This document shows positions 31,986-48,360 of a DNA stretch of 49,546 nucleotides, one piece after another (the first letter of the stretch is position 1; each line of letters begins with the position of its first letter). A program made the position numbers and the translations under genes. A model generated the notes under the pieces. The model was given only the letters and a program-made list of their open reading frames with translations, was not told the DNA's origin and did not search any database. Source of the DNA: a virus; IMG/VR virus record IMGVR_UViG_3300038438_000005. The stretch is one strand, 5' to 3'.

Positions 31986-32004
31986 GTGGCCCTCCAAAGG
32001 GGCT

Positions 32005-32205: not shown

Positions 32206-32233
32206 ACTTCGATGCTCCTGGCTGATGAATGGG

Positions 32234-33255: not shown

Positions 33256-33272
33256 TCGCCGCCCACCTCTAA

Positions 33273-33297
33273 GCCCGGCCAAGCGCCGGGCTTTTTT
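33273..33297 (+). terminator. Intrinsic terminator after the repressor gene
   Basis: GCCCGGC-CAAGC-GCCGGGC followed by TTTTTT. Confidence 0.7.
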
Positions 33298-33350
33298 GTG
33301 CCTGCGATTTGACGCCCCCCCCTCCTTTGGCCTGCCGTCCTGGCGGCCTC

Positions 33351-33403
33351 AATAAACAAAATAAACATTTTGTGTTGACGCGTTTATAAACGTGTTGTTT
33401 ACT
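33351..33403 (+). promoter_or_regulatory. PL-like early-left promoter with repressor operator motifs
   Basis: TTGACG (33375-33380), a 17-nt spacer, then TTTACT (33398-33403). The palindrome GTTTATAAAC (33382-33391) sits in the spacer, and AATAAAC and ATAAACAT repeats lie at 33351-33368. Confidence 0.5.
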
Positions 33404-33489
33404 AGCTCACATCGCAGCGACTCAAGAGGGACTGCGAAGGGCCTCACCGCCCGCCGCAACACAGGCAGCGATGCCAGGCAGACGCCGAA

Positions 33490-33501
33490 CGCTCTTTAAC
33501 A
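33490..33501 (+). promoter_or_regulatory. boxA-like antitermination element
   Basis: CGCTCTTTAACA lies about 90 nt downstream of the -10 element. It matches the rrn boxA UGCUCUUUAACA at 11 of 12 positions and starts like the lambdoid CGCUCUU. Confidence 0.5.
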
Positions 33502-33980
33502 GCCAGCGCAACAAACAACAGACCGCATTGCCTCTACCGGCGACCGGCGAGCAGACAGGCCCGAAAGCCTGCCAACGACAGGGAAAACCTTGTACGGCTG
33601 CTCGATGGTGAAACGCCAGAACCGAGTGAGTGACCCGGTAAGCAATGCGCCCCGCGAATCCCAGCGGCAGAAGGGAGAGACACTGAATTCAAGAATTAGC
33701 GGGCCCGATAGCTTCGGCTGGGACCGCCGGACCTCATGCACCCTGCCCCACTCAATCAGGGCATTCAGAGCTGTAGCGTGCATGTTGTAAGGACCTGTGA
33801 TCCACGGCGAACAGATGCTGTTTGACGCTGTGAGTAGGAAGCTCGAAGCCCGCACCATGACAAACCGCCGACCTGCAATCAGCAGCGGGATACGCGGCGC
33901 CGCCCTAGCGAAGAGGGAGTCACCGCTGACGCAACAAACCCAGGCCGTCGCCAGTAGCGGGCCTGGATTCCACAGATTCC

Positions 33981-34020
33981 TGATGCCGCTTCTATGAGGC
34001 GGCATTGGAAATCAACGGAG
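33981..34020 (+). repeat. 40-bp hairpin-plus-SD cassette, copy 1
   Basis: TGATGCCGCTTCTATGAGGCGGCATTGGAAATCAACGGAG matches 34563-34602 at 39 of 40 positions. It ends 9 nt before the ATG at 34030. Confidence 0.8.
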
Positions 34021-34029
34021 GAAGCAGAA

Positions 34030-34236
34030 ATGGCTCAGTTCAACATTGATAACAACAGAACGCTCAACAAGCGCGTTGAGTGGCTAGCGATTCCGGACGA
34101 CGGAGAGTGCGCTGACGATGTTCTCAGCAAGGTAAAGCAGGCGGCAATCGACAAGTTCGGCGCCTGCGTCTACTTCAACCACTGGGAGCGCATCGTGGCG
34201 AGTAATGGCCACGTCACGGTGCGCATGGAGGCATGA
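34030..34236 (+). CDS. Small early protein, 68 aa
   Basis: GGAGGAAG lies upstream of the ATG. The track extension MRRHWKSTE... is the repeat cassette read through. Confidence 0.5.
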   Translation: MAQFNIDNNRTLNKRVEWLAIPDDGECADDVLSKVKQAAIDKFGACVYFNHWERIVASNGHVTVRMEA

Positions 34237-34308
34237 CAGGCAGCATCACTTCTGCACCTTGGCGACAGGGTGCAGCGGGATGACAACCGAGCCCTGGAGG
34301 GCAATGCA

Positions 34309-34545
34309 ATGTTCAATTTCACAACCCAAGAAGTTAACGGGCACACCATTGCTGAGCTCGGCGACTTCAGAATTCGCTTTTTCGCAAATGATCGGAACAC
34401 ACGCATCACCTCAAGCATCGGCCTGAACCATGAGGATGAGGAATTCCGCGCCTCAGGGACTTTGTTCTTTCACTACAACGCAATTGAGCAGGGGCATGGC
34501 AACTGCAATACAGGCGGACACCAGTTCGATCACATGGCGTCCTGA
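34309..34545 (+). CDS. Small early protein, 78 aa
   Basis: GGAGGG lies 7 nt before the ATG at 34309. GC is lower than the surroundings. Confidence 0.5.
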   Translation: MFNFTTQEVNGHTIAELGDFRIRFFANDRNTRITSSIGLNHEDEEFRASGTLFFHYNAIEQGHGNCNTGGHQFDHMAS

Positions 34546-34562
34546 TCAGCCGAGCGATTTAC

Positions 34563-34602
34563 TGATGCCGCCTCTATGAGGCGGCATTGGAAATCAACGG
34601 AG
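34563..34602 (+). repeat. 40-bp hairpin-plus-SD cassette, copy 2
   Basis: It is the same cassette as 33981-34020. The hairpin arms TGCCGCCTC/GAGGCGGCA are perfect here. It ends 9 nt before the ATG at 34612. Confidence 0.8.
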
Positions 34603-34611
34603 ATCACCAAA

Positions 34612-34779
34612 ATGAGCAACGAACGAAAAGTCGTCGAACTGCCAGACGGTTTCAACGGCGCAACCATGGCGTTTTATGCCGACCCAGTCGAAGTCGATGG
34701 GCAACTGATCAAGCTGCAGTGTGCGATTCCTGGGAAAGAGCATCTCATCCGCTGGGCCCGCCAGTCCGACCTGACCTGA
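34612..34779 (+). CDS. Small early protein, 55 aa
   Basis: It is preceded by the cassette-supplied GGAG. Confidence 0.45.
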   Translation: MSNERKVVELPDGFNGATMAFYADPVEVDGQLIKLQCAIPGKEHLIRWARQSDLT

Positions 34780-34858
34780 ACAGCCAGCGCCAACGTGAGC
34801 CTCACGCTAACTGCCCGAGTGCCTCTCACTGAGTAGCCGCGATGGCCATAGAGTGAGA

Positions 34859-35018
34859 CCGCATCGGAGTGTGCAATCGCAGGATGCAACCTTGGAGGCA
34901 GCGGCATTGACTAGGCGGGTTGCTCCGCTGACTAGATGCCGGCGATCAACTGATCACTGTTTCGATAAATCCCCCTGAGGTGGCGGTTCGACTCCGCCGA
35001 TTGCACACCCCGATGCGG
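34859..35018 (+). ncRNA. Candidate structured RNA A: 21-bp terminal helix enclosing a tRNA-like module
   Basis: 34859-34879 pairs with 34998-35018, with one A.C mismatch at 34868/35009. A T arm GGCGG-TTCGACT-CCGCC (34982-34998) abuts a 7-bp acceptor-like helix TGCAATC/GATTGCA. There is a D-like TGC-10 nt-GCA and a long arm at 34903-34940. No ORF with an SD is present. Confidence 0.45.
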
Positions 35019-35202
35019 ATGACCACTACACACCGCGCAAAGCGGCCCCCTGCATCGAACCTCTGACGACCTACCCCGATCCGTAGCCAGTAGCTGGACC
35101 GGGCCCACAGATGGCGACCTGCTGTTTCAGGCCTGCCATCTGGTTTCACAAATGCCTCTAGTCCCCCTGGAGGTATTTGGAAGCCAACAGACAGAGGCAG
35201 TT

Positions 35203-35421
35203 ATGAGCATTGGAACCGAATTCAAAAGGCATATACGGAACGGCTCTCGGCGCCCGGCAGGGGTCAAAGAGGACTCAGTGGTACACGCCAAAGGCGGCGA
35301 CCAAGAAATTATCCAGCGCGCTGACCGCGTTGACTGGCGGAATGTCTCTTCTTGGGCGTACACGGATAAGCCGGCAACCCCCATCGTGGATTACGCGCAT
35401 TGCGATGGCGAGTGCGATTAA
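35203..35421 (+). CDS. Small early protein, 72 aa, with a basic N-terminus
   Basis: GAGG lies 7 nt before the ATG. The N-terminus is MSIGTEFKRHIRNGSRRPAG. It lies between RNA elements A and B. Confidence 0.45.
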   Translation: MSIGTEFKRHIRNGSRRPAGVKEDSVVHAKGGDQEIIQRADRVDWRNVSSWAYTDKPATPIVDYAHCDGECD

Positions 35422-35494
35422 AACCTCTCCTTGCACGTCCGCCAGACGAAAATTGGCCCGATCCTTTCCTTGGGGAGACTCGTATAGGGAGAGG

Positions 35495-35578
35495 CTGCAT
35501 CGGAGTGTGATCTGAGTACCGCCAGCCAGCGCGAGAGCAAAGGCAGACAAACGTCATGCAGATCACACCCCGATGCAG
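35495..35578 (+). ncRNA. Candidate structured RNA B: same terminal helix motif, 44-nt interior
   Basis: 35495-35514 pairs with 35559-35578, with the same A.C mismatch. It shares the core GCATCGGAGTGTG/CACACCCCGATGC with element A. The inner helix differs compensatorily (ATCTG/CAGAT here, CAATCG/CGATTG in A). Confidence 0.45.
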
Positions 35579-35995
35579 AAGCGGCGTGGAAAGACTGGCT
35601 TGATGTTAAGCCTCGCAGACACGCTACAAGCGGCATGACTCGATGGGGATCGCTCCTTGGGGATTGGAACCAAGGTGGGTAGGTGCACACCATCCTTTTT
35701 TGGTGGAAACAGGCCCCTGGATTCGAACGTACAGCAGCCTTGCCGAGCAATCGGGCGATATCGAACGCGCTGCGGCCATTACACAGATCATGCACGGTCC
35801 ATAGCCGGGGTAGCGTCCGGCCTTCTGCATCAACCCCGGGGCCCACTGCACATCCCGCCGGGAGGGAGCCGAAAGGTAGCAGCAGCCCGCACATGCGGAT
35901 TTTCTTTCCAGCAAGCAACGGGGGATACAGCCATGAAATAGCTCAGTGAAGTAGATACCCCGCGCCACGTAGGGAGGTCTATGTGTCGCACCGAA

Positions 35996-36021
35996 AGCCC
36001 GGGCAATGTTCGGGCTTTTTT
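35996..36021 (+). terminator. Intrinsic terminator at the end of the structured leader domain
   Basis: AGCCCG-9 nt-CGGGCT followed by TTTTTT, 40 nt before the next gene. Confidence 0.65.
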
Positions 36022-36060
36022 ACGCCCGAAAACCGGGTGAGCCAACGAATGGAGAGATTC

Positions 36061-36294
36061 ATGAGCAAAGACAACAGTGAGCCTGCGTTCCCGGCTCCAG
36101 AAGCGTCGATGGAGCATTTCGGAACGGCCGATGGGTACACAGGAGCGAGTCTGCGCGACTACTTCGCGGCTCACGCAATGCCTGGCCTTATGGGTAGAGC
36201 GTGGGCACCACTGGAAGGGAGCGAGCTTATAAATGAGTGGGCTAAAGCTGCTTACGCCGTGGCAGACGCCATGCTCGCCGCCCGTTCCGCCTAA
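36061..36294 (+). CDS. Hypothetical early protein, 77 aa
   Basis: GGAGAG lies 5 nt before the ATG at 36061. Confidence 0.55.
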   Translation: MSKDNSEPAFPAPEASMEHFGTADGYTGASLRDYFAAHAMPGLMGRAWAPLEGSELINEWAKAAYAVADAMLAARSA

Positions 36295-36315
36295 CCCCAA
36301 ACACTGGAGGTCGCC

Positions 36316-36615
36316 ATGAGCGCAACAGTTGAAGTGAGTTGCGCATGGTGCGCCGAGACGTTCACGGCACGAACTGCCGACAGAAAGCGAGGATGGGGCA
36401 GGTTTTGCTCAAAGTCGTGCAAGTCCAGTAAGCAGAAGTACGGCGCTACCAAAGCATTTTGGGATAAGGCCAACCCCAACAATAAGCGCAGCAACATCGC
36501 CAAGTACGGTGAGCGCCTGTTGCGCGACAGCGGCGGATGCATCGACGACGACGTTGATATTTCCGATATGGACTGGGGCGCCAGCGATGGCGGCGGTTAC
36601 GAATCAATCAGGTAA
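36316..36615 (+). CDS. Cys-rich small protein (zinc-ribbon-like)
   Basis: It carries the CAWC...CSKSC pairs. 99 aa. Confidence 0.55.
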   Translation: MSATVEVSCAWCAETFTARTADRKRGWGRFCSKSCKSSKQKYGATKAFWDKANPNNKRSNIAKYGERLLRDSGGCIDDDVDISDMDWGASDGGGYESIR

Positions 36616-36629
36616 GACTGGAGGCGACC

Positions 36630-36905
36630 ATGACTTACGAAGTAATTGTTGAAGGGTACGTCCTCCAGGTGGAGGTGACGTCTTGCGAGGAAGCTCTGCC
36701 AGCCGAGTACCGGAATGGCAGCCGGGAACTGACGTTCAACGTCTTGTCCGGGACCATGTACGACGCCGACCGCGTCCCGATGGACGTGTGCCAACTTGAG
36801 CTGGCCGTGATTGCCGAGAGCAAGGAATACGTCCCGATGATCGAGAAGGAGCTGTGGTTCGAGATTGACGCCCGCAGGCTCAGGAAAGGGAGGTTGGCAG
36901 CATGA
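36630..36905 (+). CDS. Hypothetical early protein
   Basis: 91 aa. GGAGG lies upstream, and its stop is ATGA-coupled to the next gene. Confidence 0.55.
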   Translation: MTYEVIVEGYVLQVEVTSCEEALPAEYRNGSRELTFNVLSGTMYDADRVPMDVCQLELAVIAESKEYVPMIEKELWFEIDARRLRKGRLAA

Positions 36906-37162
36906 AAAGCTATCACCAGCGCGCCATTGAAATGATCCAGCAGCAGATCACGCAGATCTGCAAGTCATGCCGACCCGATGAAGACTTCTGCGAAGGCATG
37001 ATCCAGGCGAATGTCGGACAAGGCCACATCAGTACCGAGGAATCGGTGGAGCTGATGCAGCTTCTGGTCAACGCCGTATCGGCAAGGCGCCGGGAACTAC
37101 AGCAACAGAGCGCGGCCAAGCGGCTTGCAGACTACGAACTCCAATATGGGCGAGCGCTATGA
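36902..37162 (+). CDS. Hypothetical early protein
   Basis: 86 aa, in the ATGA-coupled chain. Confidence 0.55.
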   Translation: MKSYHQRAIEMIQQQITQICKSCRPDEDFCEGMIQANVGQGHISTEESVELMQLLVNAVSARRRELQQQSAAKRLADYELQYGRAL

Positions 37163-37296
37163 CCATCATCGCCGGATCATTTACAGGAATCGTGGAAGCC
37201 TTGAGAAATCGAGGCTTCTTGCTTTTGGCCGAAGTGAAATGGATCGAGCAGCCTTGCAAGTGTGCGGGCCGCTGGACTTGCAAGGTGGCGCCATGA
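37159..37296 (+). CDS. Micro-ORF, 45 aa (not in the track)
   Basis: It has ATGA overlaps at both ends. The product is MTIIAGSFTGIVEALRNRGFLLLAEVKWIEQPCKCAGRWTCKVAP. Confidence 0.4.
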   Translation: MTIIAGSFTGIVEALRNRGFLLLAEVKWIEQPCKCAGRWTCKVAP

Positions 37297-37532
37297 CCGA
37301 CCTTCTCAATATGGAACTGATCAACTCGCTGCCACAGCCTTTGTGGGTAAGTGAAAACGGGAAAGACTGGTGGTGGCCGGTGCAAGATATTTGCGTTGAA
37401 AGCGGCATCGTTCGAATCGACGTGTGCGGAATATTACAGGCCGGCCACCTTTCGGACTGGCTTTATGTACGCGACGACGCCCAGGTCATTCATGACCCGG
37501 ACACCTTCTATCTTGAAGATGAATCGCCATGA
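37293..37532 (+). CDS. Hypothetical early protein, 79 aa
   Basis: It starts at an ATGA overlap. The product begins MTDLLNMELINSLPQPLWVSENGKDWWWPV. Confidence 0.5.
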   Translation: MTDLLNMELINSLPQPLWVSENGKDWWWPVQDICVESGIVRIDVCGILQAGHLSDWLYVRDDAQVIHDPDTFYLEDESP

Positions 37533-37648
37533 CCACCCGCCAGCAGCACAGGCGCCGCGCCATCCGCTGGGCCTTCTTCATCACCGGCCTGATCTTCTAC
37601 GCCGTCCTGTTCCTGGGCCCCGCTATCGGCGGCCTGATCACTCAATAG
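37529..37648 (+). CDS. Micro-ORF, 39 aa, membrane helix (not in the track)
   Basis: It has an ATGA overlap with the upstream stop. The product is MTTRQQHRRRAIRWAFFITGLIFYAVLFLGPAIGGLITQ. Confidence 0.4.
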   Translation: MTTRQQHRRRAIRWAFFITGLIFYAVLFLGPAIGGLITQ

Positions 37649-37657
37649 GTAAACGTC

Positions 37658-37885
37658 ATGACCGAATGGATTGCATGTAGCGACAGGCTACCCGACAAGT
37701 CTGGCGTATACCCGGCCTGCTCGATGCATCCGCAGCGGACGTACGACGCAAGCGACTGGATTGAATTGCTCTGCATGTTCGACGCCAAGGCCAAGCCTGG
37801 CGAAAGCAAGTGGCAGCACTCGTCGGGCTTCTACGACAACGCAATCACGCATTGGCTGCCACTTCCAACTCCGCCAGCCCAATAA
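37658..37885 (+). CDS. DUF551-like phage protein
   Basis: MTEWIACSDRLPDKSG...THWLPLPTPP matches the typical DUF551 start and end pattern. Confidence 0.6.
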   Translation: MTEWIACSDRLPDKSGVYPACSMHPQRTYDASDWIELLCMFDAKAKPGESKWQHSSGFYDNAITHWLPLPTPPAQ

Positions 37886-37927
37886 CCCCCTTCACAGCGC
37901 CCCTCTCCGGTGGCGCGGAGAGAAATC

Positions 37928-38449
37928 GTGTCCAACGAATCGAAAACCCACTTCAAGAAGGCATTCAACAGCCCCTACTTGAGCAGTGCCGACATCGTCG
38001 GTCACATGACCTTCACCGTGGCCCGCGTAACGCTGGAGGTGGACAAGACGAAGAAAACAAAGGACCTGTTCAACACGGCCTACTTCGTCGAGCGCGAGAT
38101 CCGCCCAGGCGAAAAGCTCAAGCCGATGATCCTCAACGTCACCAACAGCAAGACCATGAAGGCGCTGACCAACTCACCATTCATTGAGGACTGGCAGGGG
38201 ATCAAGATCACCGTGTACGTGGATTCGAACGTGAAGTTCGGCCGCGAGGTGATGGAAGGCCTGCGGATCAGCCCCAAGGCGCCGACGGTTGCATGGTTGA
38301 CGCCTGAAGTCGCAAGGCCCTGGGCCAATGCCAAGGCCGCGTATAAGCGCGACGGCAACCTGGACGCTGTTCTCGCCCGGTACTCAATGACAGAAGAGAA
38401 CCAGCAAAAGCTGATCAAGGAGTGCTCCGATGAATCGGCAGTGGCATGA
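37928..38449 (+). CDS. Hypothetical protein upstream of the exonuclease (possible recombination partner)
   Basis: GGAGAG lies 5 nt before the GTG at 37928. 173 aa. No annealing-protein motif was recognised. Confidence 0.4.
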   Translation: MSNESKTHFKKAFNSPYLSSADIVGHMTFTVARVTLEVDKTKKTKDLFNTAYFVEREIRPGEKLKPMILNVTNSKTMKALTNSPFIEDWQGIKITVYVDSNVKFGREVMEGLRISPKAPTVAWLTPEVARPWANAKAAYKRDGNLDAVLARYSMTEENQQKLIKECSDESAVA

Positions 38450-39053
38450 CGTTGAGCAGAACACCGAAGTATGGCAGCAGCTGCGAACCGGCAAGGTGAC
38501 GGCATCCAACGCTGGCTGCTTCATGGCAAACGGTGATGCTGCATTCGGGGAGCCTGCCAAGAAGTACGCCTTGCAGATCGCTCTGGAGATCGCCACCGGC
38601 CGCAAGGCTGAGTTCAGCTTCTCCAATGACCACACCGAGCGCGGTCATGAGCAGGAGCCAATCGCCAGGATGCACTACGAGGACGCCGAGTTCGTAACCG
38701 TCACCAACGGCGGGTTCTTCGACTGCGGCGACCATGGCGACTCTCCAGACGGCCTCATAGCCACTGACGGAGTGCTTGAGATCAAGTGCGTCACTGCCGC
38801 GGTGCATTACGCCAACCTCAAGCGCGAATCATTCGACCCGGCCTACCGCTGGCAGTTGGTCAGCCACCTGGATTGCACCGGTCGCGACTGGGTCGACTTC
38901 GTCAGCTTCTGCTCTGAATTCCCCGAGGCAAGCCAGCTCATCGTTTACCGGTCAACCCGTAACGACTTCAAGGAAGAGCTGCTGCGCCTGGCCGAACGCC
39001 GCGCCAAGTTCATTGAACTGGTCCAGACAACACTGAAAAGCATCCCGAGGTAG
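38430..39053 (+). CDS. YqaJ-type viral recombinase exonuclease
   Basis: The N-terminus is W.QLRTGKVTASNAG. It also has the PD-(D/E)xK-like core DGLIATDGVLEIKC. Confidence 0.75.
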   Translation: MNRQWHDVEQNTEVWQQLRTGKVTASNAGCFMANGDAAFGEPAKKYALQIALEIATGRKAEFSFSNDHTERGHEQEPIARMHYEDAEFVTVTNGGFFDCGDHGDSPDGLIATDGVLEIKCVTAAVHYANLKRESFDPAYRWQLVSHLDCTGRDWVDFVSFCSEFPEASQLIVYRSTRNDFKEELLRLAERRAKFIELVQTTLKSIPR

Positions 39054-39058
39054 CGATC

Positions 39059-39655
39059 ATGATCAGCATCCTCCGCAACGAAGTAGAGCGCCTGCGCCCT
39101 GCCCAGGAAGAACTTGCCGCCCAGGTCGCTGAGTTTGTGGCGGCCGGCGGGCGGATTGAGGAAGGCCCGGCCAGCGGCTACATCCCCAAGCCAATCACCT
39201 ACAGCAACCAGATGCCGCCGGCGCCCAAGCCGTTTGTTCGGCGGAAGGTTGAAGCGCCTCCGCCACTGAAGGCCGATCCCATAGACCCTAGAGCTGACAG
39301 GCGAGCCAAGCAGGCCGAACAAGCGAAAGCCTTGGCAGCTACGCACACGCAGACCGAAGCGTGTTTCGCCTTGGGCATGACGAGCAAAACCGTAAAGGCT
39401 CTGGCAAAGGACTTCGGCTTTACCTTCAAGCGCTCAACGCACGGTGGGTACAACGGCCCGGAGCGGAAAAAGGAAATTGCTGCGCGCGATGCCAAGTTCG
39501 CCGAGCGAATCAAGGCGTTCAAGGAGCTTGGATTATCGCGGCGAGTGGTTTGCGGAAAGCTTGCGATATCGAACAGAACGCTGGACCGCATTCTGATCGA
39601 GTACGACATCGACTATCCAAAATTACGACTTGGAAGCCGAGCATGCGCCGCATAG
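39059..39655 (+). CDS. Hypothetical protein with a C-terminal HTH-like region
   Basis: 198 aa, Pro-rich in the middle. The C-terminal part reads GLSRRVVCGKLAISNRTLDRIL. Confidence 0.5.
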   Translation: MISILRNEVERLRPAQEELAAQVAEFVAAGGRIEEGPASGYIPKPITYSNQMPPAPKPFVRRKVEAPPPLKADPIDPRADRRAKQAEQAKALAATHTQTEACFALGMTSKTVKALAKDFGFTFKRSTHGGYNGPERKKEIAARDAKFAERIKAFKELGLSRRVVCGKLAISNRTLDRILIEYDIDYPKLRLGSRACAA

Positions 39656-39724
39656 CCCGCACCCAGCAACGCAAACGTCAAACCTGGCTCGCACTGCCGG
39701 CCAGCGGAATAGAAGAGGTAGGCC

Positions 39725-40036
39725 ATGGCTGCCGCGCAGAAAGACCGATCGGCAAAGACTGCGGCGAGGCGAAAGACTCGCGGCGAGGAAGAATTGCGAC
39801 TCCACACTATGGCCGGCACCCGCCAGGCCTTGGCTGACCTGATGGCCTGGCACGGCATCGAGGAACAGGGCGAGGCCATGACCTTGATGATTCACCACCT
39901 GCACGGCCTGGGCCCGTCGGGATCGGCTCAGTTTCTCGCGCCGCCGCGACACAGTTATGTGATACCCGAAAACGTGTCGGCAAAACTGCAGCTCGCCTAC
40001 AACCGCGAAGCCCTTCGCATCTGCCACGACGAATAA
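39725..40036 (+). CDS. Hypothetical protein
   Basis: 103 aa, with AGAGG upstream. Confidence 0.5.
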   Translation: MAAAQKDRSAKTAARRKTRGEEELRLHTMAGTRQALADLMAWHGIEEQGEAMTLMIHHLHGLGPSGSAQFLAPPRHSYVIPENVSAKLQLAYNREALRICHDE

Positions 40037-40094
40037 CCCACCCTACTCGCTGCATCCGGTAACGCGGAGGGCGGCGCTTACCCGAGGAACACTG

Positions 40095-40706
40095 ATGAAA
40101 GCCAAGACAATTTCTATCGAGGCTGACGGCCTCAAAATCAAAGGCACTGCCGAACGTATGATTCAGCTGCTCGCGGCTAGCTTGTTTGTGCATGCTCTGC
40201 CACCGGCCGCGAATGTTAAGCCGGTAGTTGCGTCAGCCGTTCCTAAGATCGGCCAGACTTGGCCAGGCCAGGGCGGTATCAATGGCGGATTCGTTCAAGC
40301 TCGCGGTGACGTCCCAGCGCATTACCTGATCTTCGCCGCAAAAGATGTTGGCAGCCTTGAATGGGGTGGCCGTGGAGTCGAGGTGAAGGGCCTCAGCAAG
40401 ACCGACGGCCTCACCAACACCCAGGTGCTGATCGGCAACGATGACGAGCGTCAGTATCCCGCCGCCAACGCATGCGCCGAATACCAGGCCGATGGTCATC
40501 ACGACTTCTACCTGCCGGCCGCTGCCGAGCTGTACCAGGGGTGGCTGAACTGCCCCGAGGTATTCGATCAGGACTGCTATTACTGGTCGAGTTCGCAGCG
40601 CTCAGCCTACCTCGCATTCTACGTGGACTTCGGTGATGGCAGTCAGGGCTTCAGCGACAAGCACTACGAGCTCCGTGTCCGCCCCGTCCGCAGATTCTTT
40701 ATTTAA
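40095..40706 (+). CDS. DGR target protein 1 (C-type-lectin/DUF1566-like) with VR1 at its C-terminus
   Basis: GAGGAA lies upstream. The product has IGQTWPGQGGINGG near the middle and ends YYWSSSQRSAY...ELRVRPVRRFFI. The last 35 codons are VR1. Confidence 0.85.
   Translation: MKAKTISIEADGLKIKGTAERMIQLLAASLFVHALPPAANVKPVVASAVPKIGQTWPGQGGINGGFVQARGDVPAHYLIFAAKDVGSLEWGGRGVEVKGLSKTDGLTNTQVLIGNDDERQYPAANACAEYQADGHHDFYLPAAAELYQGWLNCPEVFDQDCYYWSSSQRSAYLAFYVDFGDGSQGFSDKHYELRVRPVRRFFI
40593..40697 (+). repeat. DGR variable repeat 1 (VR1)
   Basis: 105-nt alignment to the TR (41983-42087). There are 15 mismatches, and every one is at a TR adenine. Confidence 0.9.
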
Positions 40707-40741
40707 TCCTTCATTCATTCGTTCTTGATCCGGCACACCAG

Positions 40742-40760
40742 GGCGCACAGCGCCTTTTTT
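40742..40760 (+). terminator. Hairpin plus T-run downstream of VR1
   Basis: GGCGC-ACA-GCGCC followed by TTTTTT. The stem is short, so the call is weak. Confidence 0.4.
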
Positions 40761-40785
40761 GTTGCCTTCGAAAAGAGGAAGCACC

Positions 40786-41400
40786 ATGTCCGCAGTTGAG
40801 AAAGCAGCAGTAACCATCCCGGAAATCGGCCAGGCCTACGGCGGCGGATTCGTCACCGGCATTACCCGCGACCCGTCCACCGGCAAGCGCTCCCTGCACA
40901 TCACCGCCGGCGCAGCGCATGAGCTGGTCGGCAAGTGGGGCGAGTACGGCGAGAAGATCGAAGGCGCCGATAGCTTTACCGACAGCCTGGCCAACACCCA
41001 GGCAATGGCAGCGGCAGGCAGTGATCTGGCAGCAAAGGTGCTGGCCCTGAACATCGAAGGCCACACCGACTGGGCAATCCCGGCGCGGGATGTGCAGGAG
41101 CTGCAATACCGCCACTTCAAGCCGACCACCGAAGAGAACTGGGCGAGCTCGCGCAATGGCGACAACCCAAACAGCGAGCCTGTAGGCCTGCTGTACAGCG
41201 AAGAAGACCCGGTGCAGACCATCCACACCGAGTTCCAGGAAGGCGGCGCTGAAGCGTTCCGTGACACCTGGTACTGGTCATCCTCGCAGCGCTCAGCCTA
41301 CGACGCATTCAGCATGGGCTTCGATGATGGCGGTCAGGGCGACAACGACAAGGACAACGAGCTCCGTGTCCGCCCCGTCCGCAGCGAGATTATTGATTAA
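40786..41400 (+). CDS. DGR target protein 2 (paralogue, C-type-lectin/DUF1566-like) with VR2 at its C-terminus
   Basis: AGAGGAAG lies before the ATG at 40786. The product has IGQAYGGGFVTG near the N-terminus and ends WYWSSSQRSAY...ELRVRPVRSEIID. Confidence 0.85.
   Translation: MSAVEKAAVTIPEIGQAYGGGFVTGITRDPSTGKRSLHITAGAAHELVGKWGEYGEKIEGADSFTDSLANTQAMAAAGSDLAAKVLALNIEGHTDWAIPARDVQELQYRHFKPTTEENWASSRNGDNPNSEPVGLLYSEEDPVQTIHTEFQEGGAEAFRDTWYWSSSQRSAYDAFSMGFDDGGQGDNDKDNELRVRPVRSEIID
41284..41384 (+). repeat. DGR variable repeat 2 (VR2)
   Basis: 101-nt alignment to the TR (41983-42083). There are 11 mismatches, all at TR adenines. Confidence 0.9.
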
Positions 41401-41414
41401 TTCGTTTATTTAAT

Positions 41415-41432
41415 CCGGCCGCTTGCGGCCGG
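41415..41432 (+). promoter_or_regulatory. GC hairpin downstream of VR2 (candidate DGR target-recognition hairpin and/or terminator)
   Basis: CCGGCCG-CTTG-CGGCCGG, a 7-bp GC stem with a 4-nt loop, 31 nt after the VR2 end. Confidence 0.45.
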
Positions 41433-41454
41433 TTGCTCTTGGAGAGCGAGCCAC

Positions 41455-41811
41455 ATGGCAATGCATACGGAACTTGCGATCTACAAGGCTTCAATGGGGC
41501 TGCTGCACATGGCCACAACGATGACCCGGAACATCCCCCGCGACCTGAAGCAGTCACTCGGCAAGCGAGTGATCGACGAATGCATCGAAGTGCTGATGCT
41601 GATTGCCCGCGCCAATGCCACCCAGGACAAGCGGCCACACCTCACCCTGCTGGTCGAGAAGGTGCAGGTAGTCGAGTTCCTGATGCGGCTCTTCAAAGAC
41701 AACCGCTTTATCAGCATCCCGCAACACGCCCAGGCAATTGAGGTAACGGCCTCAATAGGCAAGCAAGCAAACGCCTGGAAACGCTCCACCCCCACCGCGC
41801 CCGCTACCTGA
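41455..41811 (+). CDS. avd: DGR accessory variability determinant (Avd, four-helix-bundle family)
   Basis: 118 aa, helical and basic. NIPRDLKQSLGKR and SIGKQANAWKR parallel the bAvd-type pattern. It sits between the targets and the TR, and GGAGAG lies upstream. Confidence 0.75.
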   Translation: MAMHTELAIYKASMGLLHMATTMTRNIPRDLKQSLGKRVIDECIEVLMLIARANATQDKRPHLTLLVEKVQVVEFLMRLFKDNRFISIPQHAQAIEVTASIGKQANAWKRSTPTAPAT

Positions 41812-41982
41812 AGGTTAAGGCTTTCTGGTCTGTGCGAATTGAATCTGGTCGTGCCGCTGACCTCTGGGTCACCGCCATGCGCACAAGAGATACCGCCGGT
41901 CTAAAGCGTCCGGGCAGGTCTTGCGCAGTTTCCTTGCTGATCGGCTTTGCCTTCGGCCTGGCGACGTAGATAGCACGATAGG

Positions 41983-42087
41983 TCGCAGCGCTCAGCCAAC
42001 AACGCATTCAACATGAACTTCGATGATGGCAATCAGAACAACAACGACAAGAACAACGAGCTCCGTGTCCGCCCCGTCCGCAGATTC
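41983..42087 (+). repeat. DGR template repeat (TR)
   Basis: It is rich in AAC codons (read in the VR frame: NNAFNMNFDDGNQNNNDKNNELRVRPVRRF). It is homologous to VR1 and VR2 and lies immediately 5' of, and overlapping, the RT frame. Confidence 0.9.
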
Positions 42088-43183
42088 GACTTTGGGTCCC
42101 TACCCGTTTCAGGATCTGGTCCAGGCCTATTACGACTGCCGGCGCACCAAGCGCAACAGCGACAGCGCGCTGGCTTTCGAGATCGACCTGGAGCGGAACC
42201 TGATCCAACTACACGACGACCTGGTCAGCGGCAATTACCGCCCAGGCCGATCCATTTGTTTCGTGGTCACCAGGCCGAAAGCCCGCGAAGTTTGGGCAGC
42301 AGCCTTTCGGGATCGCGTCGTCCACCACCTGATGTACAACCATGTGGCACCGCGCTTTTACGCCAGCTTCATAGCGGACAGTTGCGCATGCATTCCAGGT
42401 CGCGGCACGTTATACGCCGCCACACGGCTTGAGTCGAAGATACGCAGCGCCAGCGAGAACTGGTCGAAGCCGATCTTCTACCTGAAGTGCGACCTGGCCA
42501 ACTTCTTCGTAGCCATCGATAAGGCCGTGCTGCGAAAGCAACTGGAAGCCAGGATAACCGAACCCTGGTGGCTGGCCCTGGCTACGCAGATCCTCATGCA
42601 CGACCCGCGCGAGGATTACGAGACGCGCAGCCCGGCGCACCTGTTCAACCGGGTGCCGCAGCACAAGCGCCTGGTTGCGCAGCCCGCCCACCTCGGCCTG
42701 CCCATCGGTAACCTGTCGTCGCAGTTCTTCGCCAACGTCTACCTCGATGCCCTGGACCAGTTCGCCAAGCATCGCTTGGGCGCCAAGCACTACATCCGGT
42801 ATGTCGATGACTTTGTGTTCCTGCATGAGTCACCGCAACAGCTCAACCAGTGGCTGGCCGAGGTCGAAGCGTTTCTGCCCAGGCTGGGGGCCAAGCTGAA
42901 CCCCACCAAGACGGTCCTGCAGCCCGTGGATCGCGGCGTCGACTTCGTTGGTCACGTCATCAAGCCTTGGCGGCGAACCACCCGTAAGCGGTCGCTGGCA
43001 CAGGCATTGAAGCGAACGGCCGCAGCACCAGCCGAGGATCTGCGCGAGACGGCCAATAGCTACTTCGGCCTACTCAGTCAGGCCAGCCACAGCGACAAAG
43101 ACCGGGCCGCACTCGCCCGCGTCGTGCTGAAGCGCGGCAATAGCGTCAACGCCGCGCTGACGAAGACCTTCCAGAAGAAGTAA
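42023..43183 (+). CDS. DGR-type reverse transcriptase
   Basis: It has the YVDD catalytic motif (HYIRYVDDFVFL) and the DGR hallmark IGNLSSQ (the I/LGxxxSQ motif). It also has FRDRVVHH. The true start is uncertain: ATG 42023/42026 lie inside the TR, and the in-frame alternatives are GTG 42065 and TTG 42092. Confidence 0.85.
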   Translation: MMAIRTTTTRTTSSVSAPSADSTLGPYPFQDLVQAYYDCRRTKRNSDSALAFEIDLERNLIQLHDDLVSGNYRPGRSICFVVTRPKAREVWAAAFRDRVVHHLMYNHVAPRFYASFIADSCACIPGRGTLYAATRLESKIRSASENWSKPIFYLKCDLANFFVAIDKAVLRKQLEARITEPWWLALATQILMHDPREDYETRSPAHLFNRVPQHKRLVAQPAHLGLPIGNLSSQFFANVYLDALDQFAKHRLGAKHYIRYVDDFVFLHESPQQLNQWLAEVEAFLPRLGAKLNPTKTVLQPVDRGVDFVGHVIKPWRRTTRKRSLAQALKRTAAAPAEDLRETANSYFGLLSQASHSDKDRAALARVVLKRGNSVNAALTKTFQKK

Positions 43184-43205
43184 CTCCCCACTCCACCGCC
43201 CGGGC

Positions 43206-43805
43206 GTGGCCCGGCAAGGACTCCCCATGCCTACAGAAAACCAAATCACCGCGCCGCTGCTGGTCGAGCGCTCGACAGTCACGAAGCTGGTTATCACCGG
43301 TGCGCCACAGCTTGATCCGATCACCGTCTTCCTCGAGGACTTAGCCCCACGCAAGGGCAAGATCACTGTCAGCTGCTGGGGTAAGAGCTGGACGGCGTCC
43401 TGGGGTGGAATGTGGGACGGCCTGAACATTGGCCAGTTTTTCTGCGAACTGAACGCCGGCTACATCATCGGCTACTTCGACCAGGCGATGGGCCCACGGC
43501 AGTTCAGTGGTGAGGCGCTTGCAAACAAAGTACAGGCTGCCGTGTTGAAGGATCGCCGGCGTGGTGAGCACGGCCAGTACGAAGCGCGCGAGCTGTTCAC
43601 CGAGGCTGAAGATCTTCGCGAATCGCCATCAATTGACCATCTTCACGGCGCGCACAGCGAACTGATGCACAAGATTTTTGGGGATGAGTGGTGGCATCTG
43701 ACCAACGATGCCACCGAGCCAAACCCCGATTACGCCTACCTCGAGCGGATCATTCACGCAGTGCAACAGGCGCTGCGCCAGGAACAGCAGCAGGAGGCAG
43801 CATGA
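43206..43805 (+). CDS. Hypothetical protein
   Basis: 199 aa (or a start at 43227), coupled to the next gene by ATGA. Confidence 0.5.
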   Translation: MARQGLPMPTENQITAPLLVERSTVTKLVITGAPQLDPITVFLEDLAPRKGKITVSCWGKSWTASWGGMWDGLNIGQFFCELNAGYIIGYFDQAMGPRQFSGEALANKVQAAVLKDRRRGEHGQYEARELFTEAEDLRESPSIDHLHGAHSELMHKIFGDEWWHLTNDATEPNPDYAYLERIIHAVQQALRQEQQQEAA

Positions 43806-44122
43806 AGCGCATCTACCTCAGCGGGCCCATGAGCGGCTTGCCAGGGCTGAACTTCCCTACCTTCCACAGCATGACCGCCAGCCTGCGCGCCAGCGGCCAC
43901 ACAGTCACCAACCCCGCCGAGATAAACCCAGAAGGCGGCACCTGGACCGACTGTATGCGCCGCGACATTGCCGCCCTGATGGACTGCGACATCGTGGCCA
44001 CCCTGCCCGGCTGGGAGAATTCAAAGGGCGCAAAGCTGGAAGTGCTGATCGCCGAGAAGCTCGGCATGACCGTTGTGGATGCCCATGATCTGGTAACGAG
44101 GGAGGCTGGGATCAATGCCTGA
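43802..44122 (+). CDS. DUF4406 / nucleoside 2-deoxyribosyltransferase-like protein
   Basis: MKRIYLSGPMSG...NPAE...LPGWENSKGAKLE fits the family pattern. Confidence 0.6.
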   Translation: MKRIYLSGPMSGLPGLNFPTFHSMTASLRASGHTVTNPAEINPEGGTWTDCMRRDIAALMDCDIVATLPGWENSKGAKLEVLIAEKLGMTVVDAHDLVTREAGINA

Positions 44123-44303
44123 TTTCAGAAGGAAGCGTGACGGCGCGCTGTATTCGACCAACCGAAACGTCTGCCGTCGGCCGGGATTTAATCACTGGGG
44201 CGACTGCTACTACCTGATTCCGATCTGGGAAGGCCGCAGCCATTACAAAACTGTCGAGGCGTTCAATCGCGAATACCTGACACTTTCAGGAGAAAGGCCA
44301 TGA
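44115..44303 (+). CDS. Hypothetical small protein
   Basis: 62 aa, within the coupled gene chain. Confidence 0.45.
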   Translation: MPDFRRKRDGALYSTNRNVCRRPGFNHWGDCYYLIPIWEGRSHYKTVEAFNREYLTLSGERP

Positions 44304-44902
44304 GCACAACACCGAAGTTTGACTTGAAGACATCCGAAGGCGGTCGAGGCTTCATAGCGAACCTGTTTGTGACAGTGCTCAGGCGCCATGACTTCACCAC
44401 TTACATCAAAGAGCGCTTGGCCGCGGACTTCGCCTGTGCGCTTTCGCAATTAATCTCGAGTGCCCAGGCAAGAGAGTTTGAATTGCAACAGCGCCTGACC
44501 GCAGCGGATGAGCGGGCGGACGTGCTGGAGGGTCGAGTATCGATGCTGATTCGCGAGCTGAAAGAGCTGATCAATGACGATGACGGGATTCTGGTGGCGG
44601 CGGAACTCAGTACTGGATTCGTGTGGCATGTATTGCAGAAGCACGGCAAAGCCATTCAGGCCGCACTCAAGCCAGCAGAGGCAAAGCGCAACCAGTGTGA
44701 CGGATGTCAGGCAGGAATACCGGTCGTGAACGGTGCGCACCGCATGGGCAAGCCGGGCGGATACCCGGACACTATGAGCTGCACCGCCAAGCTGTACAGG
44801 CCAGCAAGCGGCTCGACCTGCAACCAGATCCTCGAAGAAAGCGGCCTTCCAACCAATTACCTATGCAAATCCTGCGGACGCGGCGCTTGCATTGATCGGT
44901 GA
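44300..44902 (+). CDS. Hypothetical protein with a coiled-coil and a C-terminal Cys cluster
   Basis: 200 aa. The Cys cluster reads CDGC...C...C...CKSCGRGAC. Confidence 0.5.
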   Translation: MSTTPKFDLKTSEGGRGFIANLFVTVLRRHDFTTYIKERLAADFACALSQLISSAQAREFELQQRLTAADERADVLEGRVSMLIRELKELINDDDGILVAAELSTGFVWHVLQKHGKAIQAALKPAEAKRNQCDGCQAGIPVVNGAHRMGKPGGYPDTMSCTAKLYRPASGSTCNQILEESGLPTNYLCKSCGRGACIDR

Positions 44903-44974
44903 CGCGATGAAAACCCAACTCCCCGCCTACTGCTGGTGCCTGCTGGCACTGGCACAACTGATTTGAGGTGATTT

Positions 44975-45262
44975 ATGGCGAGTGCGCCGAAGCCTACCCA
45001 TTTTGTTTATGAATGCCGGACCTGCAAAAAACGAATAACCCAACCAATTCTGCCAGTCGCTGAGGAAACGCCCATCCCAACTTGCTGCCAGGGATCGGGG
45101 CTTTCTGGAATGTGGGAACGAGTGGATTGTCACCGCTGCCAGGCTCTCAAAGAAAAAATCATTGATACAGCCGCGACCGAAGAGCGCGCCATTGTCGAGC
45201 AGATGGGCGACATGGCGGCATTCATGCGGGCGGAAGACGGAAAGCAAGAGGTGACGCCATGA
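44975..45262 (+). CDS. Cys-rich small protein
   Basis: 95 aa. The Cys pairs read CRTC...CC...CHRC. Confidence 0.5.
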   Translation: MASAPKPTHFVYECRTCKKRITQPILPVAEETPIPTCCQGSGLSGMWERVDCHRCQALKEKIIDTAATEERAIVEQMGDMAAFMRAEDGKQEVTP

Positions 45263-45525
45263 TCGCCACCCCGCAAAAAGTTCCAGACGCCGGAACCGGC
45301 ATGTTGCCTATTCGACTGCAGAAGCACGGCGCGCCGGGCGAGGTGTATCCATGCCCGACTCATTCCGGCGATAGCTGCTCCTACTGCGGTGGCACCGGCA
45401 TGCGCGCCATCTGCAACAAGACGGATTGCCATGAGCATGGGTGTCAGGGTGGTGGTTGCTCGCGAACTGCCGAGGACTATCGAATCCAACAACTGCGCAA
45501 GTCCAGAGCGGAGACAAAGCGATGA
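45259..45525 (+). CDS. Cys-rich small protein with a DnaJ-type CxxCxGxG motif
   Basis: It carries CSYCGGTG and further Cys/His pairs. 88 aa. Confidence 0.5.
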   Translation: MIATPQKVPDAGTGMLPIRLQKHGAPGEVYPCPTHSGDSCSYCGGTGMRAICNKTDCHEHGCQGGGCSRTAEDYRIQQLRKSRAETKR

Positions 45526-45574
45526 TCGCCACCCTCTGGTTCGCCTACGTCTTCATCTACAAGGGGCCGAGGCC

Positions 45575-46045
45575 ATGAATGCGCAAGTGCTGGATCCCTG
45601 CAGCGCCAGCCGAATGATGTGGTTCGACAAGGGCGACCAGCGCGCCCTGTTCGGCGACATCCGCGATGAAGAGCATGTGTTGTGTGATGGCCGGGTGCTG
45701 AAGGTTGAGCCCGACGTCATCATGGACTTCCGGCACCTGCCCTTCCCTGACGCCAGCTTCAACATGGTGGTTTTCGATCCTCCGCACCTGGTGCGCGCCG
45801 GCCGGGAAAGCTGGCTGCGGCTGAAGTACGGAATCCTGACCGACGACTGGCGCGACGATCTGAGCAAAGGCTTCGCGGAGTGCTTCCGGGTCCTGCGGCC
45901 TGGCCAGTTCCTGATCTTCAAATGGAACGAGACCCAGGTCAGGGTCAGCGAGATTCTTGCCCTTACCGACGAGCAGCCGCTGTTTGGCCACAAGTCAGGC
46001 AAGCGCGAGAAAACGCACTGGATCACTTTCATGAAGAAACCCTAA
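45575..46045 (+). CDS. Putative SAM-dependent DNA methyltransferase (orphan)
   Basis: It has the VVFDPPH motif and a downstream LRPGQFLIFKW. 156 aa. No restriction partner is seen. Confidence 0.5.
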   Translation: MNAQVLDPCSASRMMWFDKGDQRALFGDIRDEEHVLCDGRVLKVEPDVIMDFRHLPFPDASFNMVVFDPPHLVRAGRESWLRLKYGILTDDWRDDLSKGFAECFRVLRPGQFLIFKWNETQVRVSEILALTDEQPLFGHKSGKREKTHWITFMKKP

Positions 46046-46083
46046 CCCACCTTCTGCCGCCCAGCGCGGCAAGGACACCCCCT

Positions 46084-46290
46084 ATGTCTCAGATTGAAAT
46101 ATGGGAAGGACAACGGTTCGCCGCGCAGATGATTGAGCAGGCATCCCACCTACCCAAGTGCATGTTTGATGGTTGCGGGCCGGTGGAGACGATGGTGCGC
46201 AACCTTGAAACGGCGTCCCAGGTTCGGCCGGCGGATTACGCGAAGGGAATGCTGCAGGTGATCGAGGCAGTCCGCCATGGCCATTGCTGA
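46084..46290 (+). CDS. Hypothetical small protein
   Basis: 68 aa, starting at the internal ATG of track ORF 45880-46290. Confidence 0.45.
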   Translation: MSQIEIWEGQRFAAQMIEQASHLPKCMFDGCGPVETMVRNLETASQVRPADYAKGMLQVIEAVRHGHC

Positions 46291-46456
46291 GCTGCACGGC
46301 CGGAGCATTACCCCGTTTGAGCAGGGCTTCCTGTCCTTCATCAAAGGCTTAGGCCCCAAAGACAACCCATTCGACGGGGAAAAATCACCCGTCTCTAACC
46401 ATCGCTGGGCAGCCGGCTGGAACAAAGCACAGCGTGAAGCTGGGAGGAAGGCATGA
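46277..46456 (+). CDS. Rmf/CrpP-like small protein, 59 aa (not in the track); tentative
   Basis: GLGPKDNPFDGEKSPVSNHRWAAGWNKA resembles the G...(C/N)P(Y/F)...RxxWxxGW pattern of ribosome-modulation-factor/CrpP-like proteins. It has an ATGA overlap with the next gene. Confidence 0.4.
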   Translation: MAIAELHGRSITPFEQGFLSFIKGLGPKDNPFDGEKSPVSNHRWAAGWNKAQREAGRKA

Positions 46457-46782
46457 CGGATTACGCAGAGTTGAAGCTCATGGCGCAGCATGCGTCGGGG
46501 TTCTCTGACATGAGTTTGGCGCCGGATGTAGTTCTTGAGTTGATCGCAGAGAACGAGGCGTTGCGTGAAGCCAACGATAAGTTTTCTCGGCGAAATGGAA
46601 TGCTCGAGGAGAACGTGAAAACCCTAACAGATACGCACGTTCTGTACACCTGGCTGCGCAAGAAGTGCGACCAACCAAGCAACGATGTGGTGGCCTTGAA
46701 CATGAATATCGGCCATGACTGGGTGCCGGTTCATGACCTTGACCGCGATCTGTGGGCGATGATCAACCGGGAGGAGCCATGA
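46453..46782 (+). CDS. Ead/Ea22-like protein (paralogue of 28534-29112)
   Basis: MTDYAELKLMAQHA and VVLELIAENEALREA are shared with the minus-strand copy. Confidence 0.55.
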   Translation: MTDYAELKLMAQHASGFSDMSLAPDVVLELIAENEALREANDKFSRRNGMLEENVKTLTDTHVLYTWLRKKCDQPSNDVVALNMNIGHDWVPVHDLDRDLWAMINREEP

Positions 46783-47958: not shown

Positions 47959-48360
47959 ATGGCCAACACAAAGCTGGCGCCGGTCCTAGAGACCGCGCCG
48001 CGCTTCATCCGGGCGAAACACGCACCTACTTATCTCGGCATGTGTCGAGCGGTTTTTGACGAAACCGTCCGCCCCTGCGTCCGTGAGTTCCCAATTGGAA
48101 AACAGGGCGTTGCCTTCGACAGGCATGAGCTGGACCAGTGGGCAGACGCCTACGTCGAGCGCATGGCAATTGAAAAACAGACCAATCGGGACAACAATCC
48201 GCCCCGCAGTGGGCGCCTGGGAGAAAAACAATGGCGCGAAAAACAATGTCGGGCCTCTACGAGAGGAACGGGATTTGGCACATCGACAAAGTCGTCAGAG
48301 GTTGCCGACTTCAAGAAAGCACTGGAGCAAGCGAGAGGGAAGAAGCAGAGCAATACCTGA
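47959..48360 (+). CDS. Excisionase/AlpA-like DNA-binding protein (putative)
   Basis: The segment FIRAKHAPTYLGMCRAVFDETVRPCVREFPIGKQGVAFDRHELDQWADAY fits the winged-helix Xis/AlpA pattern. The open frame runs 130 nt into the integrase gene, so the true 3' end is uncertain. Confidence 0.5.
   Translation: MANTKLAPVLETAPRFIRAKHAPTYLGMCRAVFDETVRPCVREFPIGKQGVAFDRHELDQWADAYVERMAIEKQTNRDNNPPRSGRLGEKQWREKQCRASTRGTGFGTSTKSSEVADFKKALEQARGKKQSNT

Follow-up and report, generated by a model that had tools for sequence, protein, structure and literature searches.

One template repeat for two small DUF1566-like target proteins: a diversity-generating retroelement module inherited apart from the virion genes of a phage

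What a phage could gain from continually rewriting proteins that it encodes far from its tail genes is the question raised by a stretch of viral DNA of 49,546 nucleotides (nt; IMG/VR record IMGVR_UViG_3300038438_000005), whose full length is referred to here as the window. Its positions 40,095 to 41,400 encode two tandem paralogous proteins, T1 and T2, which are followed by avd (accessory variability determinant), an RT-15 RNA motif, a template repeat (TR) and a reverse transcriptase (RT) gene, in the order T1-T2-avd-RT-15 RNA-TR-RT (Table 1). This cassette is a diversity-generating retroelement (DGR), as is evident from the mismatches between TR and the variable repeats (VRs) of the two targets, from Avd and from an RT homologous to Brt of phage BPP-1. 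The module was found to be inherited apart from the virion genes, and we favour, with moderate confidence, the view that T1 and T2 are non-structural, diversifiable binders of a variable host or competitor molecule, such as a host factor, a defence protein or an incoming phage.

The repeats themselves carry the assignment. A repeat search over 36-46 kb and an ungapped scan of both strands returned exactly three copies in direct orientation, at intervals of 691 and 699 nt; in register, they share a core of 101 nt. Relative to TR, every mismatch of VR1 (15/15) and of VR2 (11/11) lies on a TR adenine, and the TR positions other than adenine are unchanged in both VRs (69/69 in each). Since the repeat spans 101 nt and its mismatches are confined to one template base, chance is excluded, and the TR/VR1/VR2 set is confirmed as real and exact. 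Both VRs are in frame with their target open reading frames (ORFs), and each ends 4-5 codons before the stop. In a preliminary description of this DNA, one TR had been proposed to serve two tandem paralogous targets whose VRs differ from each other at 13 adenine-templated positions; three repeat copies with mismatches at TR adenines alone, and exactly 13 positions of difference between VR1 and VR2, each of them A-templated, agree with this proposal in full. The tail fibre gene at 478-2424 had likewise been described as devoid of a VR. This ORF does match tail-fibre families in PHROG, and a scan of the whole window on both strands, scored on the non-A positions, found no fourth repeat copy and no TR-like copy within the fibre-like ORF, which therefore has no VR.

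Next to these repeats lie the other components of the element. Avd matches Pfam bAvd (48.4 bits; cut-off 40) and phrog_3206, 'Avd protein of DGR' (E-value 2e-30), and scores 51 bits against NCBIfam DivGenRetAVD, under the cut-off of 80. The RT-15 RNA motif (Rfam RF03018) was matched at full length with 179.9 bits (gathering score, 82); it sits between avd and TR, and its end is the point where TR/VR homology starts. An RT-15 motif is also included in the annotation of phage Cruim01. The RT matches Pfam RVT_1 (E 2e-17) and phrog_1423 (E 8e-117), is 32% identical to BPP-1 Brt (E 1e-34), and carries YVDD at residue 260 and IGNLSSQ at residue 228, a motif of the form [ILV]GxxxSQ being a hallmark of DGRs. 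The start of the RT is uncertain, as ATG 42023 overlaps TR and TTG 42092 is an alternative. Adenine-only TR/VR mismatches, an RT with both motifs next to TR, and Avd thus occur together in a single cassette.

A target of the kind represented by Mtd of BPP-1 is expected to be inherited together with the tail module. No such co-inheritance was found for T1 and T2, which are separated from the fibre gene by about 38 kb and belong to the other arm of the window, and whose module accompanies unrelated virion modules in other genomes. The lambda-like SC_8_H2H8_2017 encodes an RT 98% identical in amino acids (aa) to that of the window, together with an annotated 'minor tail protein L', and Cruim01, a siphovirus by electron microscopy (PMC11256456), encodes an RT that is 91% identical. 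Yet 13 virion proteins of the window gave no tblastn match (E up to 1e-3) either in the whole SC_8_H2H8_2017 genome or in the structural-gene region of Cruim01 (its first 28 kb). Magia, which carries a related cassette, is a myophage (PMC7883833). Podovirus Ab31 presents the reverse case: three of its large internal virion (ejection) proteins are 62-74% identical in aa to those of the window, and it encodes no T1, T2, Avd or RT. The module is inherited apart from the virion genes. Because it accompanies unrelated virion modules, because Ab31 lacks it, and because T2 and the third targets of relatives are bare domains with nothing for anchorage and the N-terminal module of T1 is an orphan, it is very unlikely that T1 and T2 are fixed, stoichiometric tail components, and the earlier claim that they are not ordinary parts of the tail is strengthened by this shuffling of the module among virion types.

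The distribution of the cassette was followed in a scan of relatives that took one genome per species and yielded 50 loci. About 38 Pseudomonas species keep the order T1-T2-Avd-TR-RT, and in all these loci the VR mismatches fall at A sites only or almost only. Fifteen loci (L009, L010, L017, L019, L020, L022, L025, L026, L030, L032, L037-L039, L041 and L042) encode a third target about 3.5-7 kb upstream of T1, remote from the tandem pair; it is a DUF1566 domain with nothing added and in most of these loci is 158 aa long. Its mismatches, too, are wholly or almost wholly confined to A sites (21/21 in L026). No third target is present in the window. Additionally, RTs 66-73% identical to that of the window are found in phPA-G (Pseudomonas aeruginosa), vB_Sb_QDWS (Shewanella), and Magia and vB_PL1 (both Burkholderia), and in phPA-G, vB_Sb_QDWS and Magia two tandem short targets, Avd, TR and RT lie between recombination genes and the integrase. 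An informal look at identities found no apparent co-variation of the T1 N-terminal type with the neighbours p103 or T2. Single DUF1566 homologues with no nearby RT are encoded 0.5-2 kb downstream of cI in D3 (L007), PAN70 (L005) and two further loci (L046 and L049); measured against the TR of the window, all mismatches of the L046 homologue (16/16) are at A sites. Jumbo phages of about 285 kb have DUF1566 homologues as well, of weaker similarity.

Much of this architecture has been recorded before. The Magia record lists a 'lectin fold domain protein; potential DGR target', and the announcement of this phage in 2021 places the targets in short reading frames (PMC7883833). Two targets were counted in 13% of DGRs by Wu et al. 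(2018), who also defined a 'category d' of Legionella-like DUF1566 targets, about half of which are short DUF1566-only proteins (PMC5758913). For Roux et al., Pseudomonas is one of the three genera with the most DGR contigs; they also described prophage-borne clade 3 DGRs whose targets are uncharacterised (bioRxiv 10.1101/2020.04.01.020958). The architecture is already known, then, since two-target cassettes and short DUF1566-only targets have been catalogued and Magia annotated. The preliminary description had singled out this locus as a likely source of new biology; its argument that the targets are not ordinary tail parts stands, but its novelty was overstated, given the cassettes in about 38 Pseudomonas species, in Burkholderia and in Shewanella, and the annotation of Magia.

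Comparison of close relatives indicates how often the VRs are replaced. TR is 100% identical in the window, in Pseudomonas proteolytica (L008) and in SC_8_H2H8_2017 (L001), although the RT gene has only about 91% nucleotide identity, and the VRs of these two relatives differ from those of the window at A sites throughout (11/11, 14/14, 16/16 and 13/13 differences). Where two homologues differ at no more than 5 of about 166 residues outside the VR, they differ at about 11 of the 37 residues inside it. The VR peptides are all distinct (105 of T1 and 117 of T2), and column entropy in the T1 family is highest at the AAC-templated codons. Since VR differences are restricted to A sites, VR peptides are unique and TR is identical, VR turnover is frequent on the scale of strain divergence. 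It is seen in both VRs, which bears out the suggestion that VR1 and VR2 diverged independently from the same TR: about a dozen residues of a putative lectin-like surface are re-randomised independently in each paralogue. Judged by its repeats, its reading frames and this comparison of relatives, the DGR is intact and recently active, in agreement with ongoing mutagenic retrohoming.

Not every relative has kept the diversifying machinery. The avd-TR-RT segment is deleted or truncated, with T1 and T2 retained, in Aurca01 (L003), Medea1 (L004) and three prophages (L018, L029 and L036), and Aurca01 keeps an 84-nt RT fragment. When the VRs retained in relatives that lack avd-TR-RT were compared with the TR of Cruim01, 14/14, 17/18, 18/18 and 13/15 mismatches were at A sites. 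As both targets persist where avd-TR-RT is no longer intact, they appear to be useful without continuing diversification.

The two target proteins are 44% identical to each other, and the motifs by which they had first been grouped, IGQxW/YxGGG and a C-terminal WSSSQRSAY...ELRVRPVR, are present in both, the former as IGQxW/Y..GG. The ATG of T1 is preceded by GAGGAA 6 nt upstream. T2 had initially been read from TTG 40759; it probably starts at ATG 40786 instead, which has AGAGGA 7 nt upstream and gives a 204-aa product that is present in exactly this form in the protein database (P0121). Homologues are numerous, with 888 for T1, mostly of 203 aa and mostly from Pseudomonas, and 1055 for T2, nearly all from Pseudomonas. 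Against Pfam Lcl_C/DUF1566 (PF07603), T1 scores 30.9 bits (E 3.7e-7) and T2 31.2 bits (E about 3e-7), with a gathering cut-off of 34.9; a precomputed PF07603 match exists for most close homologues of T1 and T2, and both proteins match phrog_4245 (T1, E 1e-30). Correspondingly, a profile of the family matches the solved C-terminal domain of Lcl (8q4e) over the last 68 residues (E 0.0019), a domain that is C-type-lectin-like, trimeric and extracellular and binds glycosaminoglycans (PMC11162425). AlphaFold2, run on T1 and T2 with 120-sequence alignments, returned unusable models, with a mean predicted local distance difference test (pLDDT) score of 44.4 for T1 and 40.9 for T2, and residues 1-34 of T1, a beta-hairpin followed by a helix, are the sole part modelled with confidence. 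Given these poor models, the C-type lectin (CLec) fold of T1 and T2 is a prediction from sequence. The DUF1566/C-type-lectin-like look attributed to the proteins is supported by Pfam scores just short of the cut-off and by the PHROG and 8q4e matches, but the CLec fold is not confirmed by AlphaFold2.

The N-terminal module sets T1 apart from T2. Residues 1-48 have no Pfam relative at E up to 10 (10 diverse N-termini were searched), a profile of the module has no match in the PDB, and a phmmer search of 1.84 billion representatives found no fusion to other domains, its three matches all being members of the family. A swapped hairpin of the AbrB/MazE type, suspected for the T1 N-terminus on account of its pattern (ITLKHGDTTIKMP...), was dropped, as neither Pfam nor the PDB gave a match. 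Likewise, the helix at residues 19-34 is unlikely to be a membrane anchor: it contains Q, S, H or K, and its maximal 19-residue hydropathy is 0.95-1.7 in relatives. Judged from inspection and hydropathy, T1, T2 and the third targets carry neither a signal peptide nor a twin-arginine motif nor a lipobox Cys; Cys first appears in T1 at residue 127 and is absent from T2, and the maximal Kyte-Doolittle hydropathy of T1 over 19 residues is 1.35. Nor did the T1 N-terminus show homology to a fibre or virion-anchor domain in the Pfam search (E up to 10) or the PDB profile search, so that the absence of signal peptide, lipobox and recognisable anchor domain noted at the outset is reproduced by inspection, hydropathy, Pfam and PDB alike. 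PADLOC gave no match for T1, T2, Avd or their neighbours, and generic matches only for the RT; NCBIfam had nothing for T1 or T2; and no functional study of phage-borne small DUF1566 proteins was found in the literature.

Downstream of each VR lie elements that set it apart from the TR. An AT-rich element (TTTATTTAATCC...TTCATTCATTCG) follows every VR, including the remote third VRs, and follows no TR in the loci compared (L001-L052). At the tandem VRs, a GC hairpin comes next after this element, and none is found after TR. The pairing of the hairpin is kept by compensatory changes in relatives (CCGGCCG/CGGCCGG, CCGCCCG/CGGGCGG and CCAGCCG/CGGCTGG). The hairpin after VR1 also resembles an intrinsic terminator (T6) placed between T1 and T2. 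A GC-rich 3' end is common to both VRs and TR. By analogy with the initiation of mutagenic homing (IMH) element and hairpin of BPP-1, the AT-rich element and the hairpin are putative target-specific homing signals, which would act together with the GC-rich end.

As for its setting, the window looks like a complete prophage or phage, with the prophage cut at its attachment (att) site. Bases 1-56 have a counterpart of 98-100% identity in phiPSA1, psageK9 and SC_8_H2H8_2017, match tRNA-Pro genes at 88% identity, and probably represent the att core; no complete tRNA was found by ARAGORN. The minus-strand arm encodes a podovirus-type virion, with internal virion proteins, tail tubular-like proteins and a portal/adaptor. 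A virion module similar to the one at 2493-8877 on this strand is that of vB_PaeP_Tr60_Ab31, a temperate podovirus of P. aeruginosa. No nucleotide-level relative exists among phage isolates, and the early arm is mosaic with siphoviruses. The plus-strand order is cI, terminator, small ORFs, YqaJ, DGR module, DUF4406, methyltransferase and int, in keeping with the placement of the targets, from the beginning, in a PL-like accessory arm between recombination genes and a methyltransferase. A 199-aa protein (phrog_3451) is encoded between the RT and the DUF4406 protein. A sigma-70 consensus scan of window positions 32000-46500 found 0 promoter-like sites, against 5.1 +/- 1.7 expected from shuffles; in L046, a PL-like, sigma-70-like promoter adjoins cI, and two ORFs separate it from the single T1 homologue.

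Table 1. Positions of the DGR module and of other features in the window
Feature	Position	Strand	Remarks
T1	40095..40706	+	203-aa ORF; orphan N-terminal module (residues 1-34), Pro-rich linker, DUF1566/Lcl_C-like domain
VR1	40593-40693	+	34 codons at the 3' end of T1
AT-rich element after VR1	40694..40721	+	ATTCTTTATTTAATCCTTCATTCATTCG; holds the T1 stop codon; homing-signal candidate (target-specific part)
GC hairpin and T-run between T1 and T2	40740..40762	+	terminator or DGR target hairpin; kept in relatives with loop variation
T2	40786..41400	+	204 aa; bare DUF1566/Lcl_C-like domain with insertion, without N-terminal module
VR2	41284-41384	+	3' end of T2
AT-rich element after VR2, then GC hairpin	41385..41432	+	hairpin 41415-41432: 7 bp, 4-nt loop
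avd	41455..41811	+	accessory variability determinant
RT-15 RNA motif	41795..41985	+	
TR	41983-42083	+	32 A; 9 AAC codons, 1 AAT codon; encodes SQRSANNAFNMNFDDGNQNNNDKNNELRVRPVR
DGR reverse transcriptase	42023..43183	+	
Fibre-like ORF	478-2424	opposite to targets	
cI-like repressor	32518-33255	+	opens the plus-strand arm
Strong terminator	33271-33293		directly after cI
Unannotatable ORF	33496-34005	-	between cI and the early-left genes
YqaJ exonuclease	38430-39053	+	after small ORFs, upstream of the DGR module
DUF4406 / nucleoside 2-deoxyribosyltransferase-like protein	43802-44122		Pfam E 5e-27; downstream of RT
DNA methyltransferase	45389-46045	+	downstream of the DGR module
Tyrosine integrase	48231-49427		at the end opposite bases 1-56

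The cassette may be viewed as a self-contained accessory DGR module of the DUF1566/CLec2 Legionella-like class, carried by a temperate Pseudomonas prophage in its early-left arm, between cI and the integrase. RT and Avd would copy TR RNA with adenine-specific errors, and the resulting cDNA would replace the 34 3'-end codons of T1 or T2, with homing probably guided by the common GC-rich 3' end, the AT-rich element and the hairpin after each VR. T1 and T2 would be expressed from the early-left operon, made in the cytoplasm without export, and bind their ligand through the lectin-like face. A non-structural role is favoured because the two proteins are small and soluble, carry no export signal, are not encoded in the virion module and show none of the co-inheritance typical of tail genes. 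Several points weigh against it. A position in the accessory arm is no proof of early or intracellular action, since a mobile cassette may sit wherever insertion is tolerated; the Pfam Lcl_C scores fall just below the gathering cut-off, and the CLec fold is unconfirmed (pLDDT 44 and 41); the N-terminal hairpin-helix module of T1 could be a docking element for a partner; and in lytic Bacteroides phages differences in DUF1566-type VRs track host range, which makes a role in adsorption plausible (PMC8143477). A narrower version of the non-structural reading is more tentative. In it, the targets form a small library of cytoplasmic lectin-fold binders (two here, three in many relatives), made early or in the lysogen, that would recognise or neutralise hypervariable intracellular partners, for instance proteins of host defence or of superinfecting phages; selected on replication and not on adsorption, such a library would serve adaptive counter-defence or exclusion. 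As a specific claim this seems rather unlikely, and PADLOC offered no support from known defence families.

Among the alternatives, T1 and T2 could be detachable or accessory receptor-binding adhesins, produced inside the cell and then released at lysis or loosely bound to the particle, that tune adsorption or host range in an ordinary tropism-switching DGR with its targets encoded outside the tail operon. All experimentally studied phage DGRs concern receptor binding, as exemplified by Mtd of BPP-1 (PMC5758913), the correlation with host range just mentioned was seen in the Bacuni phages (PMC8143477), glycosaminoglycans are the ligand of the extracellular, trimeric DUF1566 domain of Lcl (PMC11162425), and the confidently modelled N-terminal module of T1 would offer a means of docking. 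Yet the module accompanies podo-like, sipho and myo virion modules with no detectable common structural proteins (PMC7883833; PMC11256456), is missing from Ab31 despite its homologous ejection proteins, and lies in the early-left arm; T2 and the third targets of relatives have no N-terminal domain whatsoever, and no homology to a fibre or adaptor domain was found. On this evidence, an adhesin function appears rather unlikely, though plausible. We regard as quite improbable that T1 and T2 are lysogenic-conversion proteins, exported and displayed on the lysogen in the manner of Legionella LdtA. LdtA does exemplify the DUF1566/CLec2 class of DGRs (PMC5758913), clade 3 DGRs occur in cellular and prophage contexts alike (bioRxiv 10.1101/2020.04.01.020958), and the single homologues of D3, PAN70, L046 and L049 lie close downstream of cI; but T1, T2 and the third targets lack a signal peptide, a twin-arginine motif and a lipobox Cys, and in the window a strong terminator follows cI, with the targets about 7 kb further on. 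Finally, the loss or truncation of avd-TR-RT and the frozen VRs of Aurca01, Medea1, L018, L029 and L036 might suggest that the cassette of this phage, too, is a decaying relic. This is highly improbable, given that its RT ORF is full length with YVDD and IGNLSSQ intact, that Avd, RT-15 RNA and TR are intact as well, that its TR is identical to that of relatives, and that neither VR1 nor VR2 contains a single non-A mismatch.

Compared with known systems, the module shares with BPP-1 (mtd-avd-TR-brt) the adenine-specific TR-to-VR mutagenesis, Avd, a homologous RT and a C-terminal VR in a lectin-like domain, predicted in the case of T1 and T2. Mtd, however, is a single trimeric protein of the tail-fibre tip, encoded with the tail genes, whereas the window has two small targets away from the virion module. 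Experimentally studied phage DGRs diversify receptor-binding tail proteins, and here the diversified proteins are signal-less, bare lectin-like domains that occur independently of virion type; the identity of their ligand would tell whether phages use targeted hypermutation beyond adsorption. The value of the locus is that of a tractable entry to the role of non-structural phage DGR targets, and not that of a new kind of system. The DGR of Legionella pneumophila LdtA (CLec2, category d; PMC5758913) resembles the window in having a DUF1566-type VR domain with a C-terminal VR, but LdtA is an outer-membrane lipoprotein exported by the twin-arginine (Tat) pathway and encoded on a chromosomal island, in contrast to T1 and T2, which are phage-borne and have no export signal. 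The Legionella DGR falls in clade 3 of Roux et al., to which the RT of the window may belong, to judge by its target class.

Closer matches are found among phages. Magia (NC_070954; PMC7883833), vB_Sb_QDWS and phPA-G have, like the window, two tandem short targets of predicted lectin fold with Avd, TR and RT, located in the recombination-to-integrase arm of a temperate phage, and their VRs end in ELR(V/A)R(P/A)VRR, as do those of the window. Unlike the latter, their targets are 120-195 aa long and lack the N-terminal module of T1. For Magia, a role in host range was raised purely as speculation in its announcement (PMC7883833). phPA-G is a Detrevirus, and the host of Magia is Burkholderia cenocepacia. 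Within Pseudomonas, the widespread clade to which the window belongs is probably the main source of the catalogued DGRs of this genus. The Pseudomonas syringae phages Cruim01, Aurca01 and Medea1 share with the window a T1-T2 pair encoded after p103 (phrog_5439); the paper describing Cruim01 and Aurca01 makes no mention of either DGR. The cassette of Cruim01 is complete down to the RT-15 RNA, whereas Aurca01 and Medea1 have lost avd-TR-RT and carry frozen VRs. Cruim01 and Aurca01 are both siphoviruses and have both been cultured, on the same P. syringae host strain, CC1557.

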